64,000 bases of DNA from a virus, in IMG/VR virus record IMGVR_UViG_3300017963_000024, positions 1 through 64,000 of that record. One strand, 5' to 3'. Positions 2,811-60,499 of this stretch are shown in pieces. The notes beneath the pieces were generated by a model. The model worked only from the letters and a program-made list of their open reading frames with translations, was not told the origin of the DNA and ran no database searches. The number at the start of each line of letters is the position of its first letter. Position 1 is the stretch's first letter. Made by a program: the position numbers and the translations under genes.

Positions 2811-3416
2811 TTGAAACACAAATCTTTGTTGGACATCGTAGCGAGTCTCGGAAAGGAGATCAGAAGACCGATGGACAAAATTGAAGTGACACGCGAAGAA
2901 GTTGTGGAGATGTATAACGCACTCCTCAACGCAAAGCTTTTGAGGGGGGACCCTCAGATCACGTATGCCCTTGGAAGGACGAAGCGATCATTGCGCGATC
3001 CGGCTGAGTCGATCACCGAGGGCAACGTCCCCTCTGACGAGTTCAATCAGTTCAACAAGCTTCGGGATGACCTGTGCCAGAAGTTCGCTTTGAAGGACGG
3101 CAAAGGGCGGCCTCTCTCCAGTGGCAATCAGTGGGTCATGGACCCCGACAAGGCCGAGGAGTTCGAGAAAGCCGCCGAAGACCTCAAAGCAAAATACGAG
3201 AAAGCACTCAAAGAAGAGGAAGAGCGGCGCAAGGGCTTCAAAGCTTGGAAACGTGAGAAGATGGACGTAAAGGTCCACAAGGTCAAGCTTTCGGCGCTGA
3301 AGCGAGTCTACAACAAGGAGAAGCCAGAAGAGTCCCTGACGGTTGACCAGATGGACGCACTAGCTCCGATGATTATCGTAGACTTCGACCTCAAAGACGA
3401 AAAGGTTCCCGAGTGA
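2811..3416 (+). CDS. hypothetical charged protein, possibly a tail fibre assembly chaperone
   Basis: K/E-rich helical ORF after the tail gene; alternative start at ATG 2871. Confidence 0.5.
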   Translation: MKHKSLLDIVASLGKEIRRPMDKIEVTREEVVEMYNALLNAKLLRGDPQITYALGRTKRSLRDPAESITEGNVPSDEFNQFNKLRDDLCQKFALKDGKGRPLSSGNQWVMDPDKAEEFEKAAEDLKAKYEKALKEEEERRKGFKAWKREKMDVKVHKVKLSALKRVYNKEKPEESLTVDQMDALAPMIIVDFDLKDEKVPE

Positions 3417-4717
3417 TGGCTCCCGCTACGCAAATGGTTTCGGCCAAGAAAAAGAAGAAAAAGAAGAAGGACAAAGTCAAAGCTTCGGATAATGGGAGGA
3501 ATCTTCGGCTAGAGTGGGTTGATCCCCGCACACTCTCTCCGAATCCGAAGAATTGGCGACGGCATCCAAAGACTCAGGTCGAGTCTGTAGAGGGAGTCAT
3601 CAAAGATGTGGGGTGGGCCGGAACTCTTCTGTTCAACGAAGCGACTGGACGGCTCATTGATGGACATCTCCGAAGAAATCTAGGCTTCAAGGAGGTTCCC
3701 GTTTTGATGGGTAGCTGGACAGAGGAGCAAGAGGCAGAGATTCTAGCGACTCTTGATCCAACAGCCGAGCTTGCTCTGATGAATGAGAAGGCTTTGGCTG
3801 TTGTCATGGCTCAGTCAAAAGCCAAGAGTCCCGCCGTCAAGAGATTATACGATGCCATGCTGAAAGAGAACGAAGGACTTCAGAGGGAAATGGAGTCTTT
3901 GCTCGATCAGCAACTCAGCGATCTTGAAGGCATGGACGACCTCGATCTCGACGAGGGTGATGACTTGACTCCTATCTCAGAAACACCAAACATCTTCTTT
4001 CGAGAAGACGCGGTGTTCTCCTCGACGAACAAGTGGGGATTACCTGATCTCAAAGAGGATATGCTGAGTGAAATCATTCCGACCGAAGTGTTTGGAGGCG
4101 AGTCCATCGAGCAGATTGGTGATCCGTCTCGGTGGTTATTCATGTACGGTAAGGCAAAGTTCACTCCTGAGATGGTACAAGGCGGTGTGCTGGGCTTCTA
4201 CGTTGAAGACGAGAATTTCAACGTGGTGTGGCAAGAAGCTGTTGCGACTGTCGAAAAGCTTTACCGGCTGAATTGGGGTGGGATTATCGCTCCAGACTTC
4301 TCATTATGGGCAGACGATCCACTTGTCGTTCAGCTTTGGAATGTCTATCGGGCAAGGTGGGTTTCTCGATTCTGGCAGGAAGCTGGAATCAAGGTGATCC
4401 CGAACATGGGATGGTCCGACAAGCGAAGCTACGATTTCTGCTTTGACGGGATTCCGAAGAAATGTCCTGTGATTTGCTGTCAGTGCCGTTCCCTCGGACG
4501 GGCGAAAGAGGAGAAAAAGCAGGGTCAAAAAAGTTGGCTCAGAGGATTCATTGAGGGGTGCAAAACGCTTGAACCCGCCAACATTTTGATCTATGGGGGA
4601 ATTGAGCATAGGGCATGGATCGAGAAGGGACTGCCAAAGAAGGGCCTTCCAAAAATCTACTGGCTAGATTCTTGGATGGCAAAACGAAGAGCAGCCAACT
4701 TCAAGATCGGAGACTGA
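3413..4717 (+). CDS. ParB/Srx-like N-terminal domain fused to DUF4417-like domain
   Basis: LSPNPKNWRRH...LIDGHLR (ParB-like); GFYVEDENF, IIAPDFSLW, WNVYRARW, GIKVIPNMGWS, ILIYGG (DUF4417-like). Confidence 0.75.
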   Translation: MMAPATQMVSAKKKKKKKKDKVKASDNGRNLRLEWVDPRTLSPNPKNWRRHPKTQVESVEGVIKDVGWAGTLLFNEATGRLIDGHLRRNLGFKEVPVLMGSWTEEQEAEILATLDPTAELALMNEKALAVVMAQSKAKSPAVKRLYDAMLKENEGLQREMESLLDQQLSDLEGMDDLDLDEGDDLTPISETPNIFFREDAVFSSTNKWGLPDLKEDMLSEIIPTEVFGGESIEQIGDPSRWLFMYGKAKFTPEMVQGGVLGFYVEDENFNVVWQEAVATVEKLYRLNWGGIIAPDFSLWADDPLVVQLWNVYRARWVSRFWQEAGIKVIPNMGWSDKRSYDFCFDGIPKKCPVICCQCRSLGRAKEEKKQGQKSWLRGFIEGCKTLEPANILIYGGIEHRAWIEKGLPKKGLPKIYWLDSWMAKRRAANFKIGD

Positions 4718-56207: not shown

Positions 56208-56484
56208 CGACGTTGATTTCAAGTTTACTTGGAAGATTCTCTCTTGGCCTGAACAGGAAGAAGGCTTTCTAACAAAGCTTTTTGATCCTGATCGCCTTGG
56301 ATTTCCTCTCGATCCTGACGAGAAGATTACTTCCGAGCGTATTAGAAGAGCCTTGGAATCTCCTCAATTCCGAGATGAGTTCAGACGGAACTTGAATGAG
56401 ATTGTGGAGGAAACGGCTAGAAAGATATTTCGAGAAGCTTTGGAAAAGGGTTTTACGGCCATTGAGCTAGAGCCAACACCATGA
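56197..56484 (+). CDS. hypothetical protein
   Basis: overlaps both neighbouring genes. Confidence 0.5.
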   Translation: MATNDVDFKFTWKILSWPEQEEGFLTKLFDPDRLGFPLDPDEKITSERIRRALESPQFRDEFRRNLNEIVEETARKIFREALEKGFTAIELEPTP

Positions 56485-58925
56485 GTGAAGTAGCCTTTGA
56501 TCCGCTTTCGGTAATCGACGACAGCACTCCTTGTGCTTTTAGTCGGTTTCCTCAGACGGACGACGAACTTTGGGAGTTCGTGGCAACGGTTTGGGGCGTT
56601 GAGATCCCAAGGAAAAAGATTTGCCCCCAGCACTGTGCTCCGTTCGATGCTTTTGCCGATGCCTTCTTCTGTAAAGCGGAAAACGCGATCTGGCTCGCAA
56701 GCCGTGGGTTGGGTGGCAAGAGTTTCCTTCTTGCTACGCTGGGCCTCACTGAAGCAGTTTGTCTTGGGGCGACGGCAACGGTCCTTGGTGGATCAGGCGC
56801 ACAATCACAAAACGTTCACAGGTATATGCAAGATATGTGGAGTTACCCTGCCGCGCCACGTCAATTGCTTGCGGAGGACCCCACGAAAATGAGGACCGTT
56901 CTTAAGAACGGTGCCTATGTTCAAGCTTTGCTGGCTTCATCCACCAGTGTTCGTGGCCCTCACCCTGTAAGGCTTCGGTGCGACGAGTGCCTCACTGGAG
57001 ATTCACTCGTTCTAATGGCTGATGGTTCTAAGAAACGTTTGGACAGGGTAGAACCCTCAGACAAGGTGGTTACTTTCTATAGGGGTTGTTTATGTGAGGG
57101 TGTTGTGTTAGCCTCTGAGTATAAGGGTGTCAGAGAGACACTAAAGCTTAGAACGGAGGCTGGTAATGAAATCGTCTGCACAAAAGAACATCCGGTCCTC
57201 GGAGAAAGTGGTTGGCGAGAAGCGTCTACCTTTGCAGCGGGGGATTACATCTGGCTATCCGATAACTCTGCCGACGTACTCCCACCGGGACGTGAAGAAG
57301 TGTCTCGACTGTGGGAAAGCTTTGAAGCACAAGATGGCTCGGCTGGTGACGGGGTACTGCAAAGAGTGTCTAACGGAGAAGGTCAAGAAACCGAAGTTCT
57401 GCGAAGAATGCGGGACTCAGGTTGGAAGCCAATCGAAGCTTTGTCGGCCCTGTTGCTTCAAACGAAGGAAGAAGTCAAAAGCTTTTTGCAAGGATTGTGG
57501 AACCGAATTGCGTTTAGCTTCTACGAAGCGTTGTCGCCCCTGCCACCTCAAGTTCATGTCCTCGGAACGCATGGTTTCGAGGATGTCGGCTTCCAGAGCT
57601 ACGGCTATGAAAAACAGGGAGGAGAGATCGAGAGCCGAAACACAGGCGGCGGAGCTTCTTCGACTGTTCAAGATAAACTTTCGAGAGCAAGTTCCAGCCT
57701 CCCGTTATATTCTGGACTTCGTTCTGGACGACTACAAGGTTGTGATCGAGGTACACGGGGCGTATTGGCACGACAGGCCCGCTGCGAAGAAAAGGGATCA
57801 AGCAAAAAAGAAAGCTTTGGAGAAGAGGGGTTGGCAGGTTCTTTTCTGGCGAACCGAAAAGCTCCACCTGTGGTGGCTCGATCTCGTGTCGCCTCCATTC
57901 AACAAGCTGGGAGAAGTGGAGTCTATGATATAAGAGTTTCTCCTGGCAAGAGCTTCGTCGCTAACGGTATCATTGTTCATAACTGTGACGAGATGAAGCT
58001 CGACATTCTCGATGCGGCTCTAGGCCAGCCGATGTCGAAGGACGGAATTCCCGCTCAAACAGTAATGTCCTCGACGCACCACTATCCTGACGGTACGGTC
58101 ACAGAGCTTCTGAATCGAGCCAAAGAACGTGGGATGCCCGTCTATAACTGGTGCTACCGGGAAAGTATGGCCGGGGGCTGGCTTTCCCCTGCCGATGTGG
58201 AAGCCGCCCGTGCTCGTGTTCCACTGGCAATGTGGGATGTTGAGTTTGAGCTTCAGGAGCCGAGTCCTGAAGGACGCGCCATCCAGCCACAAGCTGTAGA
58301 GTGGACTTTCGATCAAAGCTTGGGATACTTTGAAGGCCAAGCGAATGAAAAGATCGTGCTTGAACCCCCACAGGAGGGGGCTAAGTACGTGACCGGGGCA
58401 GATTGGGCGAAGGAGAGTGACTGGACAGTCATCATTACGTTCCGAATTGACGTTACTCCTTGGAAGCTTGTCATGTTCGAGCGGCTTGGCCGACGCCCTT
58501 GGCCGGAAATGGTTGAAAAATTCAATGACAGGCTTACTCGCTACCGAGGTGTCGGCGTCCACGATGCAACAGGGCTGGGAAATGTTGTGGATGACTTCGT
58601 GACCAACAGAGCCGCCAGAGGGGAAGTTTTGGTGGGAAAGAATAGGGCTGAAATTTTCTCTGAATACGTTGCAGCACTGGAAAACCGTGAAGTGGTTGCA
58701 CCGAGAATTGACTTCATGTATGCAGAGCACAAGTATTGCACGGTGGATGATTTGTGGGGGAGTGGGCACCCGCCTGATTCCTTTGTTGCTGGTGCGCTGG
58801 CATGGCGAGGCAAACGTTTCAGCCAGTCTACGGGAACCGTAAGGTCCATTGTGTCCCACCCGAAGTGGAAAGAGCGGTCGGACGAGAGGATCGCACGTCG
58901 GCTTGAACCTTGGAAGTTCGACTAG
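56481..58925 (+). CDS. terL: terminase large subunit containing an intein
   Basis: SRGLGGKS Walker A; RLRCDE|CDEM Walker B split by the intein; GADWAK..DWT, VHDATGLG, HPPDSF nuclease motifs. Confidence 0.92.
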   Translation: MSEVAFDPLSVIDDSTPCAFSRFPQTDDELWEFVATVWGVEIPRKKICPQHCAPFDAFADAFFCKAENAIWLASRGLGGKSFLLATLGLTEAVCLGATATVLGGSGAQSQNVHRYMQDMWSYPAAPRQLLAEDPTKMRTVLKNGAYVQALLASSTSVRGPHPVRLRCDECLTGDSLVLMADGSKKRLDRVEPSDKVVTFYRGCLCEGVVLASEYKGVRETLKLRTEAGNEIVCTKEHPVLGESGWREASTFAAGDYIWLSDNSADVLPPGREEVSRLWESFEAQDGSAGDGVLQRVSNGEGQETEVLRRMRDSGWKPIEALSALLLQTKEEVKSFLQGLWNRIAFSFYEALSPLPPQVHVLGTHGFEDVGFQSYGYEKQGGEIESRNTGGGASSTVQDKLSRASSSLPLYSGLRSGRLQGCDRGTRGVLARQARCEEKGSSKKESFGEEGLAGSFLANRKAPPVVARSRVASIQQAGRSGVYDIRVSPGKSFVANGIIVHNCDEMKLDILDAALGQPMSKDGIPAQTVMSSTHHYPDGTVTELLNRAKERGMPVYNWCYRESMAGGWLSPADVEAARARVPLAMWDVEFELQEPSPEGRAIQPQAVEWTFDQSLGYFEGQANEKIVLEPPQEGAKYVTGADWAKESDWTVIITFRIDVTPWKLVMFERLGRRPWPEMVEKFNDRLTRYRGVGVHDATGLGNVVDDFVTNRAARGEVLVGKNRAEIFSEYVAALENREVVAPRIDFMYAEHKYCTVDDLWGSGHPPDSFVAGALAWRGKRFSQSTGTVRSIVSHPKWKERSDERIARRLEPWKFD
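56988..57983 (+). mobile_element. intein (332 aa) inserted in the TerL Walker B motif
   Basis: block A CLTGDSLVLMADG, block B CTKEHPV, block F GVYDIRV, block G FVANGIIVHN followed by Cys. Confidence 0.92.
57166..57933 (+). CDS. Zn-finger + DUF559/Vsr-like endonuclease overprinted in the +1 frame inside the intein
   Basis: GGAGG SD 6 nt before ATG; three CxxC...CxxC units; FREQVP..YILDF...VIEVHGAYWH...KRDQAKKKALEKRGWQVL. Confidence 0.85.
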   Translation: MKSSAQKNIRSSEKVVGEKRLPLQRGITSGYPITLPTYSHRDVKKCLDCGKALKHKMARLVTGYCKECLTEKVKKPKFCEECGTQVGSQSKLCRPCCFKRRKKSKAFCKDCGTELRLASTKRCRPCHLKFMSSERMVSRMSASRATAMKNREERSRAETQAAELLRLFKINFREQVPASRYILDFVLDDYKVVIEVHGAYWHDRPAAKKRDQAKKKALEKRGWQVLFWRTEKLHLWWLDLVSPPFNKLGEVESMI

Positions 58926-58933
58926 GAGTGGTC

Positions 58934-60499
58934 ATGTCCCGAAGCAAAAAGCGAATAATGAAGACCGGGGGAGCCGTTCAGGTTTCCAAATCAACGGTCG
59001 TCAAAGAAGATCAAGAACCACTCCTGCCGACGATGTTCGTGAGGGTCATTAAGGCGGCAAAGCCAGTGACTTCTACTCCTCCAAGTCAGCAGATTACAAA
59101 CGATGACTTCAGTTCGTACTACGAAGGCGAGGTTGTCGTCCAACCTTATGTAGACCCTTCTGCGCTTCTAAACCTCGCTCAAGAGAATCCTGTTCATTGT
59201 GCTTGCATCACTGCTGTTGCGGCTGATGCTACTGGCCGGGGTTGGAAATTGGAGTGGTCTGGTCAGCCTGATCTTAGGATCGAGCAGAAGGATGTGAAGC
59301 AAGCACAGCAAGAACTTTGGCAAAAGCTTGAAGACATTACACCAAATCTCACGTTTTCCGAACTCCTTCGTCAGGCAGTTTGGGAGCTTCGGGCAATTGG
59401 GTGGGCCGCTTGGGAGGTCGCTCGTGACAGCAGTGGCGAAATTGGTGCTCTCTACCCAATTCCCGCCCACACCGTTCGAGTTTTGAAGGACAAGACTGGT
59501 TACATCCAGATTCGAGGTGGCAAAGCTCGATATTTCCGAAACTTTGGTCAGGAGGGCGCGCTTCCAGAAGGTGTGGAGTTCGTGAATGTGGATACAGGCG
59601 ATGCTTCCCGAGCCAATGAACTTCTTTTCTTCCAATCTTACCATCCACGAACTCCTTTCTATGGACTTCCCGATTGGGTTTCCGCCGTTTCGTCGATGGC
59701 TGAGATGACTCAGATTCGAGAGTTCAATATGTCGTTCTTCTCAAGTGGAGGGATGGCAGACAGAATCATCACTGTAAAAGCCGATAACGAGGCAGTTGCC
59801 GATGCGCTTGGTAAAAAGATCGAGGAGCAAGTCCAAGCTGCTAAAGGTCTAGCTCACGTTTCCATAGTAATCAGTGGAACGACTGATGTTGAAGTTCGTG
59901 TGGAATCAATGAGCCGAACCGAGGGCGATAGGGATGGTCAGTTCAGAACTCGGCGGGATGACCTCGTAAAAGAAATTCTCATGGCCCACAGTGTTCCTCC
60001 ATACAGAATCGGCTTTGCCGAGCTAGGAACTCTTGGAGGATCAGCAGCCCGTGAAATGCTTCGAGCCTACCGCTTTGGGGCAATCGAGCCTGTCCAGACA
60101 ATCATCGAAGACCGACTAACTCAAACTTTGTTCGGTCAACAAGGCTTGCAGATTCCATCAAGCATGAGATGGGTTCTGCAAGACGTTGATTTTGAGTTGG
60201 TTGATTTGAATCTTCTCATCGCTACCCGAGGAGTTCAAAATGGTTTTGCCACTCCCTCACAAGCTGGACAGTTGATGGGATTCGAGCCAACTGACGATCC
60301 AGCGGCAAACCGTCTCTATATGGATGGTGTTCCTATCACTGGAGATGTTCGTGAAGGCCAACCATCTGGATTATCTACAGAGCAACCAAGCGGATTGCCA
60401 GAAGGAATGGCTCCGACCGCCCCGACACCGATGGAGACTCCAGCACCACAGAGCGGGGGCAATGGTCGAGGAGGAACGATTGAGGTTGCTTCCGCGTGA
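58934..60499 (+). CDS. portal protein (PBSX/HK97-like)
   Basis: GWAAWEV.RD, LYPIPAHTVR, FYGLPDW, ILMAHSVPPYRIG; follows TerL. Confidence 0.9.
   Translation: MSRSKKRIMKTGGAVQVSKSTVVKEDQEPLLPTMFVRVIKAAKPVTSTPPSQQITNDDFSSYYEGEVVVQPYVDPSALLNLAQENPVHCACITAVAADATGRGWKLEWSGQPDLRIEQKDVKQAQQELWQKLEDITPNLTFSELLRQAVWELRAIGWAAWEVARDSSGEIGALYPIPAHTVRVLKDKTGYIQIRGGKARYFRNFGQEGALPEGVEFVNVDTGDASRANELLFFQSYHPRTPFYGLPDWVSAVSSMAEMTQIREFNMSFFSSGGMADRIITVKADNEAVADALGKKIEEQVQAAKGLAHVSIVISGTTDVEVRVESMSRTEGDRDGQFRTRRDDLVKEILMAHSVPPYRIGFAELGTLGGSAAREMLRAYRFGAIEPVQTIIEDRLTQTLFGQQGLQIPSSMRWVLQDVDFELVDLNLLIATRGVQNGFATPSQAGQLMGFEPTDDPAANRLYMDGVPITGDVREGQPSGLSTEQPSGLPEGMAPTAPTPMETPAPQSGGNGRGGTIEVASA

Follow-up and report, generated by a model that had tools for sequence, protein, structure and literature searches.

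The large terminase subunit (TerL) gene of an uncultivated phage, deposited as the IMG/VR record IMGVR_UViG_3300017963_000024, contains an intein, and within the centre of this intein a nuclease gene is encoded in the +1 frame of the same strand. The source is a complete genome of 86,832 bases with direct terminal repeats, and the window analyzed here is its first 64 kilobases. The element is interpreted as a class-1 intein that is mobile and interrupts the Walker B motif of TerL, with a homing endonuclease encoded by a separate +1-frame gene in the intein centre, and a probability of about 0.8 is assigned to this interpretation. Selection is frame-specific in the overlap: the TerL frame is stop-free but its residues are not conserved, while the residues of the nuclease frame are conserved. 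Translation of the nuclease of 255 amino acids (aa), protein splicing and DNA cleavage are predicted from the sequence. An initial annotation, made from the letters of the window alone, had proposed a nested nuclease gene for which the intein frame serves as a stop-free linker, and the comparative evidence from five lineages is consistent with that proposal.

Relatives of the nested nuclease were collected from protein and metagenome data. A word-indexed protein search returned three relatives, 42-48% identical, which had been called as separate genes of 186-262 aa. A metagenome scan with the alignment of these relatives returned 43 loci, five of which are close (L001-L005). Two short contigs among the close loci seem to encode P0002-like and P0003-like proteins. 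The loci were grouped with the window into five lineages: the window, L001/L002, L003 (partial), L004, and L005, the other four coming from separate metagenome contigs. In L001, L003, L004, and L005, the same region of TerL contains an intein, and the nuclease is encoded in +1 relative to the TerL frame, which is uninterrupted (for L003, in the part available). The nucleases of these lineages are 42-49% identical to that of the window and about 42-58% identical among themselves.

The three frames of the overlap were compared through a codon-threaded alignment of the core (the zinc ribbons through the complete nuclease domain), which comprised 170-181 columns in each of 10 pairs. Mean identity was 45% for the nuclease frame and 22% for both the TerL frame and the third frame. 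Because the TerL-frame identity equals the third-frame identity, the absence of stops is the only visible constraint on the TerL-frame peptide. The recurrent TerL-frame strings LLARQ and LLARP are a shadow of the nuclease motif YWHDRP. Conservation between lineages is 42-58% for the nuclease, 42-57% for the exteins, and 28-42% for the N-terminal lobe (N-lobe) of the intein. Two very close sequences, L001 and L002, differ at 11 of 2409 nucleotides. Of the eight extein differences, seven leave the TerL protein unchanged, and two of the three in the nested part are silent for the nuclease and nonsilent for TerL; these numbers are small, and their direction is the expected one. The element thus combines an open host frame that lacks an in-frame nuclease with a complete off-frame nuclease open reading frame (ORF) under purifying selection, the two marks of an out-of-frame intein endonuclease. 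The initial annotation had asked whether related TerL inteins keep both frames open with purifying selection on the +1 frame, and the five lineages answer in its favor.

Two frames are open across about 770 nucleotides of the intein centre, as had been noticed from the letters alone, and the openness of the TerL frame is far beyond chance. In the null model, synonymous codons were permuted inside the nuclease ORF and the TerL-frame stops were counted. The window has 0 stops against a permutation mean of 12.9-13.0, and none of the 20000 permutations was stop-free. A TerL-frame stop requires a nuclease codon ending in T, followed by a codon starting with AA, AG, or GA. A T-ending codon precedes none of the 74 nuclease codons that start with AA, AG, or GA, versus 50 of the 180 other codons. 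No TerL-frame stop was observed in L001 (permutation mean 12.0), L004 (7.6), L005 (6.7), or L003 (2.4), and one was observed in L002 (12.4). The third frame, used as a control, contains 2-19 stops, near its permutation means.

The intein shows the features of class 1: a Cys1 nucleophile, a block B TxxH, a C-terminal His-Asn followed by Cys+1, and a profile match above the threshold. It starts with TGC (Cys1) at 56988 and ends with AAC (Asn332) at 57983, and the next codon is TGT (Cys) at 57984. The motifs are CLTGDS... at the start, ...VCTKEHP in block B, ...VYDIRV in block F, and ...IIVHN at the end. The Pfam profile Intein_splicing matches the intein with 43.3 bits (cut-off 35.8) and also matches five of five related inteins. 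The residues C1, T65, H68, H331, and N332 are invariant in all five aligned inteins. The coordinates, the intact splicing blocks and the continuity with the TerL frame given in the initial annotation were all confirmed. The N-lobe is 33-37% identical to those of TerL inteins from Gordonia phages (tblastn). The predicted spliced junction aligns without gaps with two intein-less TerL relatives, L046 and P0154. Protein splicing is likely, given the intact residues and the essential nature of TerL.

The TerL frame of the intein centre contains no nuclease family in the Pfam search; only Hint/intein families were recognized, in five of five inteins. The earlier statement that the central region lacks an in-frame nuclease therefore holds, but its size, given as about 220 aa, is reduced to about 199 aa by the boundaries determined here. 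The residues S, G, R, Q, E, P, K, A, and D constitute 67% of this spacer in the window and 67-74% across the lineages, and hydrophobic residues constitute 18-27%. This composition and the absent conservation suggest that the spacer is disordered.

The nested gene encodes three zinc ribbons followed by a Vsr-like nuclease domain. The initial annotation had described a +1 ORF of 255 aa with three zinc units and a DUF559/Vsr-like nuclease, and the Pfam searches and the comparison with solved structures agree on this description. The zinc units are C46/C49-C65/C68, C79/C82-C93/C96, and C108/C111-C123/C126, and the residues C46, C49, C68, C79, C82, C96, C108, C111, C123, and C126 are invariant in all seven sequences of the family. 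The Pfam family DZR matches the window nuclease with 27.4 bits (cut-off 27.3), and DZR or DZR_2 is found in 5-6 of the seven members. DUF559 matches the window nuclease with an E-value of 3.2e-12 (46.7 bits, cut-off 20.6) and matches all seven members; Vsr matches the window nuclease with 27.6 bits (cut-off 27). No NUMOD or helix-turn-helix family is among the Pfam matches, and the N-terminal part consists of the zinc ribbons instead. The TAA stop codon of the nuclease (57931-57933) is within the block F codons D-I-R, which places it inside block F as first described.

A profile built from the seven family members was searched against the sequences of solved structures. The best match was the catalytic domain of I-Bth0305I (3r3p, "mobile intron protein") with 5.2e-12, followed by E. 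coli Vsr (1cw0) with 1.5e-6 and a DUF559 structure (3hrl) with 1.2e-4. The residues D184, E195, H197, H202, D211, and H234-W237 are invariant in all seven nucleases. In the alignments with Vsr (segments DFV-, IFTHG versus IEVHG, WH-, and VERD), D184 corresponds to Asp51, E195 to the position of Phe62, H202 to His69, and D211 to Asp97. According to the available part of Dassa et al. 2009 (PMC2677866), the Vsr-like homing family is characterized by residues matching Asp51, His69, and Asp97 of Vsr and by an invariant Glu at the position of Phe62. By sequence, both the catalytic core and the catalytic residues of the EDxHD/Vsr-like family are thus present in the nested nuclease. The features of the locus are listed in Table 1.

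Table 1. Features of the interrupted TerL gene and its nested nuclease gene, in positions of the window.
Feature	Position	Strand	Remarks
TerL precursor ORF, 814 aa	56481-58925	+	From the ORF list; the intein is read through without a stop
N-extein	56481-56987	+	Terminates with ...GPHPVRLRCDE (Walker B); gapless alignment with intein-less L046 and P0154
Class-1 intein, 332 aa	56988-57983	+	Cys1 ... His-Asn, then Cys+1; Pfam Intein_splicing 4.2e-11
Intein N-lobe (blocks A, B)	56988-57272	+	From TerL-frame conservation in the alignment of five inteins
GGAGG Shine-Dalgarno sequence	57155-57159	+	6 nucleotides before ATG 57166; within intein codons T-E-A
Nested nuclease gene, 255 aa	57166-57933 including stop	+	+1 frame relative to TerL; zinc ribbons and Vsr-like/EDxHD domain
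TerL-frame spacer, about 199 aa	57273-57869	+	Open frame, residues not conserved
Three CxxC...CxxC zinc ribbons (residues 46-126)	57301-57543	+	Presumed DNA-binding part
Vsr-like/EDxHD nuclease domain (residues ~145-237)	57598-57876	+	Ends in the family motif HLWW
Intein C-lobe (blocks F, G)	57870-57983	+	Shares its first part with the end of the nuclease gene, stop codon included
C-extein	57984-58925	+	Begins with CDEMKLDILDAALGQPM; nearest relative P0154 (68% identity, no intein)

A start signal for the nested gene is written into the block B region of the intein. The GGAGG sequence and the ATG pointed out in the initial annotation were found at the expected positions, and a Shine-Dalgarno sequence with a start codon recurs in four of the five lineages. 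In the window, L001/L002, and L003, GGAG(G) is located 6-7 nucleotides before an ATG, 4-6 codons ahead of the block B Cys. The core motif was seen ahead of 21 of the 38 ORF starts checked in this phage, and GGAGG-type sequences precede many of its genes; some of the 17 ORF starts without the motif are probably mis-set. In a null model with the intein peptide fixed and codons resampled according to each gene's own codon usage, the chance of such a start signal was 4.5-7.9% per lineage (0.045 in the window). The occurrence in four of five lineages is suggestive of selection, and internal initiation at ATG 57166 is predicted.

If this prediction is correct, ribosomes would initiate internally at this ATG on the terminase mRNA and produce the 255-aa nuclease. 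The TerL-frame product of the overlap would be a hydrophilic spacer of about 199 aa that loops out between the splicing lobes, and it would depart with the intein on splicing, restoring the sequence ...RLRCDE-CDEM.... In co-infection, the nuclease may cut intein-less terminase alleles near the Walker B codons, and repair would copy the intein together with the nested gene into the cut alleles. Separate translation would also uncouple the amount and the timing of the nuclease from those of the abundant late terminase.

Several observations weigh against the interpretation as a separately translated, maintained nuclease gene. In L003 on its own, stop avoidance falls short of significance (P = 0.059). 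L002, a near-copy of L001, has a TerL-frame stop; either the spacer is not always open, or the contig contains an error or represents a dead variant. In L004, the ATG abuts GGAGG, and only a GTG two codons on has normal spacing (6 nucleotides). L005 has no clear Shine-Dalgarno sequence with a start codon near block B: the only ATG, some 30 codons upstream, has no Shine-Dalgarno sequence ahead of it, and just AAGGG precedes the GTG. GAG comes from the codon of a Glu that is itself conserved in the intein, and the lineages have a common ancestry, so the four Shine-Dalgarno cases are not fully independent. The RNA fold around the start site is not unusual (z = -0.32). Finally, the DNA-level inspection covers five lineages.

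The nested ORF might be a relic that has lost its expression or activity, leaving in effect a mini-intein with a long spacer that is vertically inherited. Pseudogenisation is raised as a possible fate in the available part of a preprint on actinobacteriophage inteins (bioRxiv 10.1101/2025.01.02.630785), and L002 indicates that a damaging change in the region is possible. A relic is nevertheless improbable: the ORF is intact in all five lineages with invariant catalytic and zinc-binding residues, the nuclease frame is twice as conserved as the other two frames and equal to the essential exteins, and among close terminases the intein occurs sporadically, at two different sites.

A functional nuclease could also serve another role, such as the cutting of DNA from competing phages or the host, which would not help the nuclease gene to be copied. 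Vsr/DUF559-type nucleases have many functions, and free-standing zinc-finger relatives are present in other phage contigs (L048, L049). A fixed location within a self-splicing element that interrupts an essential gene where it is most conserved is rather a signature of homing, and the best solved relative, I-Bth0305I, is described as a proven homing endonuclease in the available part of Taylor et al. 2011 (PMC3239194). There is consequently little room for a role apart from homing.

Programmed frameshifting from the terminase frame is a further explanation for the expression of the nuclease. In this case, a fusion of the N-extein, the N-lobe, and the nuclease would be produced, or a second shift would return to the TerL frame, and no internal initiation would be needed. 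The two frames share the strand, the open stretch of the nuclease frame extends back beyond the ATG to 57145, and L005 lacks a convincing Shine-Dalgarno sequence and start, all of which would suit frameshifting. It would be surprising all the same, as the Shine-Dalgarno sequence and start recur above chance in four of five lineages, no slippery site was recognized by eye in 57255-57300 and 57850-57933, the full in-frame product needs two shifts, and the leader of the nuclease, which overlaps the N-lobe, lacks conservation.

An artefact, in which two compensating indels shifted an ordinary in-frame endonuclease domain, is conceivable for a metagenome-assembled record whose two matching runs may be its own source, but it has next to no probability, since the same +1 offset is seen in four other lineages on separate contigs despite 42-49% nuclease identity to the window, the Logan contigs of the two runs show 0 differences and 0 gaps across 56400-59000 at about 30x word depth, and two indels would not erase all of the about 13 expected TerL-frame stops, so that this explanation was already contradicted. 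The runs containing the stretch 56400-59000 are a sediment metagenome (2018) and a seawater metagenome (2021) from two studies. Both run contigs are 62416 long, and they may be one data set filed twice, so they are not strong independent support. Compensating indels had been named at the outset as what would overturn the interpretation, and none appeared in the rebuilt contigs of these two, possibly not independent, runs.

The interpretation as a nested gene would likewise have been questioned by close homologs that carry the nuclease in frame with the intein. A profile search of the full library yielded 10165 matches, 25 of them at E <= 1e-30, and the best 150 of the 10165 were examined. Among these best 150 relatives, no in-frame nuclease in a TerL-sized protein was found closer than E = 1e-18, and the opposing case anticipated in the initial annotation was not encountered. 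All 62 matches ranking above the protein P0064 in this set are 81-416 aa, too short for a TerL-sized in-frame fusion. P0064 itself (rank 63, E = 1.6e-18) is a protein of 1274 aa from an AT-rich source and contains two inteins, each with an in-frame DUF559/Vsr-type nuclease; Pfam recognizes two stretches each of Intein_splicing, DUF559, and Vsr. Canonical in-frame versions thus exist among distant relatives of the nested nuclease. Longer proteins with the nuclease in frame were not found at E <= 0.001 among 1418 candidates, which is weak evidence.

Scans of viral and genome contigs revealed distant relatives. The viral-contig scan with the single nuclease sequence gave no match, and the scan with the alignment gave L048 and L049 only, distant free-standing relatives with 24% identity. 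In the AT-rich viral contig L048, two such genes of 541 and 557 aa are arranged in tandem (L048:1184-2806 and 2964-4634), and similar genes are found in L049. The genes of L048 and L049 each encode several zinc-finger units (DUF4379), a Vsr-like core, and an additional C-terminal domain. The genome-contig scan found 13 loci that match in the nuclease domain only, with 31-48% identity across 30-75 residues. No close prophage copy was found in the genome-contig scan, and thus no host is proposed. The leaders (AQKNI/AHQNI) and tails (STT) of distant relatives resemble +1 shadows of block B and of the terminal VHN; this likeness was seen by eye and is not counted as evidence.

The distribution of the intein points to mobility. 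Of the best 120 C-extein relatives listed, 118 have lengths of 447-533 aa and no recorded intein family; the other two are the window protein and P0247. The corresponding sequence is ...KLLLDEVDEMD... in the intein-less nearest relative P0154 (68%) and ...RLRLDEIDEMD... in the intein-less L046 (52-55% identity). Two insertion sites were recognized. At site 1 (window and L004), the intein follows ...DE, and Cys replaces Ile/Val. At site 2 (L001, L003, and L005), it is inserted three codons earlier, before CDE, and Cys replaces Leu. The two sites are equivalent positions of a local xDE-xDE repeat in Walker B, and this arrangement suggests a nine-base slip in some past invasion.

A near-repeat of nine bases flanks the intein of the window (56979-56987 and 57984-57992; 8 of 9 alike), each copy encoding Cys-Asp-Glu. 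The Cys of the upstream copy (RLRCDE) stands where intein-less relatives have Leu, and it may be the trace of a former intein at the adjacent insertion site. The 900-aa TerL relative P0247 is interrupted by inteins at two different places: one is in the Walker A region, and the other, which is small, lies in the C-terminal half. In the Walker B motif of P0247 (...RLRLDECDEM...), Cys occupies the +1 position of the window intein, but no intein is present. Together with the two Walker B sites, the inteins of P0247 give this terminase clade at least four intein sites. That the Cys of RLRCDE in the window and the Cys of P0247 are scars of precise intein loss is speculation.

The TerL label of the interrupted ORF appears reasonable, despite the weak profile matches. 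The N-extein matches phrog_9 (terminase large subunit) at 4.3e-5, and the intein-less L046 matches phrog_9 and phrog_7579. We take the motif GxxGKS to be Walker A and ...VRLRCDE to be Walker B. Downstream of the TerL ORF, a portal gene (phrog_12, 1.6e-35) is located at 58910-60499, and the locus is a packaging module. An ORF of 279 aa on the minus strand (58020-58859), antisense to the C-extein, lacks obvious features and is probably open by chance.

A wider proposal, which is tentative and rather doubtful, is that this family represents a long-lived state linking canonical inteins, mini-inteins, and the "fractured genes" of Dassa et al. It is put forward because the +1 overprint persisted while the terminases diverged to about 45-57% identity, because the ribosome-binding site is written into the block B region of the intein, and because one nuclease-silent change in L002 splits the host frame. 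This change (L002:1023-1025, equivalent to L001:3661) is a C-to-T substitution that retains His in the nuclease and converts a Gln codon of the spacer to TAA. Downstream of the TAA in L002, no convincing restart with a ribosome-binding site was found. L002 could be a dead allele, a short-contig error, or the first step to a split intein. If the proposal is true, L002 would show a contiguous intein becoming split, or dead. Separate initiation would set the dosage of the nuclease apart from that of the highly expressed terminase, and such dosage control could explain why the two-frame arrangement persists instead of being resolved by an indel into an in-frame domain.

Inteins are generally taught as single polypeptides with an in-frame endonuclease. 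The element described here indicates that a splicing element and a nuclease can be two genes on one stretch of DNA, which supports an order in which splicing came first and the nuclease invaded later. Several points are added to the published examples. A third nuclease family is found on the same strand as the intein. The clear, conserved ribosome-binding site is a predicted answer, for this family, to the question of how hidden nucleases are translated. The five lineages indicate that the two-frame state is old and actively maintained rather than transient, and the two sites three codons apart in the xDE-xDE of Walker B point to past movement. Nested genes of this kind are missed or mislabelled by gene callers, and such inteins are likely filed as decaying inteins or mini-inteins. 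For protein engineering, too, the small zinc-ribbon nuclease may be of interest, paired as it is with a contiguous intein in which a spacer of about 200 residues is tolerated.

An out-of-frame intein endonuclease is a published kind of element, not a new kind, and the novelty implied by the initial annotation was too high. The comparisons below refer to the available parts of the cited sources. Gosselin, Arsenault, and Gogarten (bioRxiv 10.1101/2025.01.02.630785) describe actinobacteriophage inteins, many of them in TerL, whose endonuclease is in a separate frame. The types include antisense LAGLIDADG endonucleases, antisense Vsr-like nucleases with a match to 3R3P, and same-strand endonuclease VII-like proteins in "frame 3"; the proposed origin is the invasion of an intein by a free-standing endonuclease gene. 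The window element resembles these inteins in its intact splicing lobes, the open host frame in which no structure is recognised, and the complete off-frame nuclease. It differs in that its Vsr-like nuclease is on the same strand in the +1 frame and carries zinc ribbons, whereas theirs is antisense, and in its origin from uncultivated hosts and its conserved Shine-Dalgarno sequence with a start codon. One such intein, in TerL of the Gordonia phage Angelicage, was checked here. It contains an Endonuclease_7 ORF (3.8e-20) in the third frame, and its N-lobe, 37% identical to that of the window, is the best match in the phage database. The TerL family and the insertion site are different: the window intein is inserted in Walker B at ...DE|CDEM, and the Angelicage intein at ...VLVM|...|TRWHEDD.

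In the literature searched, no same-strand +1 Vsr-like nuclease in a contiguous intein was found, and neither were its zinc-ribbon form nor the conserved ribosome-binding site; the supplementary tables of the 2025 preprint could list a Vsr-like nuclease on the same strand. A second published system is the cyanobacterial dnaX inteins (Phillips, DeSimone, and Gogarten, bioRxiv 10.64898/2026.09.14.751524), which contain a same-strand +2 out-of-frame LAGLIDADG ORF. Purifying selection on the nuclease frame and relaxed selection on the host frame over the overlap are reported, a secondary invasion of a mini-intein is proposed as the origin, and the idea is credited to Gorbalenya 1998. The window shares with the dnaX inteins a same-strand overlapping endonuclease ORF and frame-dependent selection. 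In contrast to the LAGLIDADG nuclease, the +2 frame, and the cellular host gene of the dnaX case, the window has a Vsr-like nuclease, the +1 frame, and a phage TerL gene.

The ShiLan domain is an out-of-frame HNH insertion in phage methylase genes (Arsenault, Gosselin, and Gogarten 2025, PMC11855218). Here too, a nuclease gene is overprinted on an insertion that is open in the host frame. The ShiLan domain has no splicing domain and no detectable ribosome-binding site, while the window has a full intein and GGAGG.

The fractured genes (Dassa et al. 2009, PMC2677866) are split inteins whose two halves are separated by a free-standing gene for a Vsr-like endonuclease, and one of them is at a terminase locus. 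I-Bth0305I, the EDxHD prototype and a real homing endonuclease, has an N-terminal DNA-binding region and a C-terminal nuclease (Taylor et al. 2011). Fractured genes contain a stop and a restart, whereas TerL can be read without interruption in the window, L001, L004, L005, and the available part of L003, with one stop in L002 alone; the host gene and intein of the window are not split into two ORFs. The DNA-binding part is also different, being composed of zinc ribbons in the window and of NUMOD or helix-turn-helix regions in the fractured genes and I-Bth0305I. The nuclease family is the same in all of them, and so is the order of a binding part followed by the nuclease. As in the fractured genes, the nuclease of the window has a gene of its own, with predicted separate translation, inside the intein of a phage gene whose product acts on DNA.

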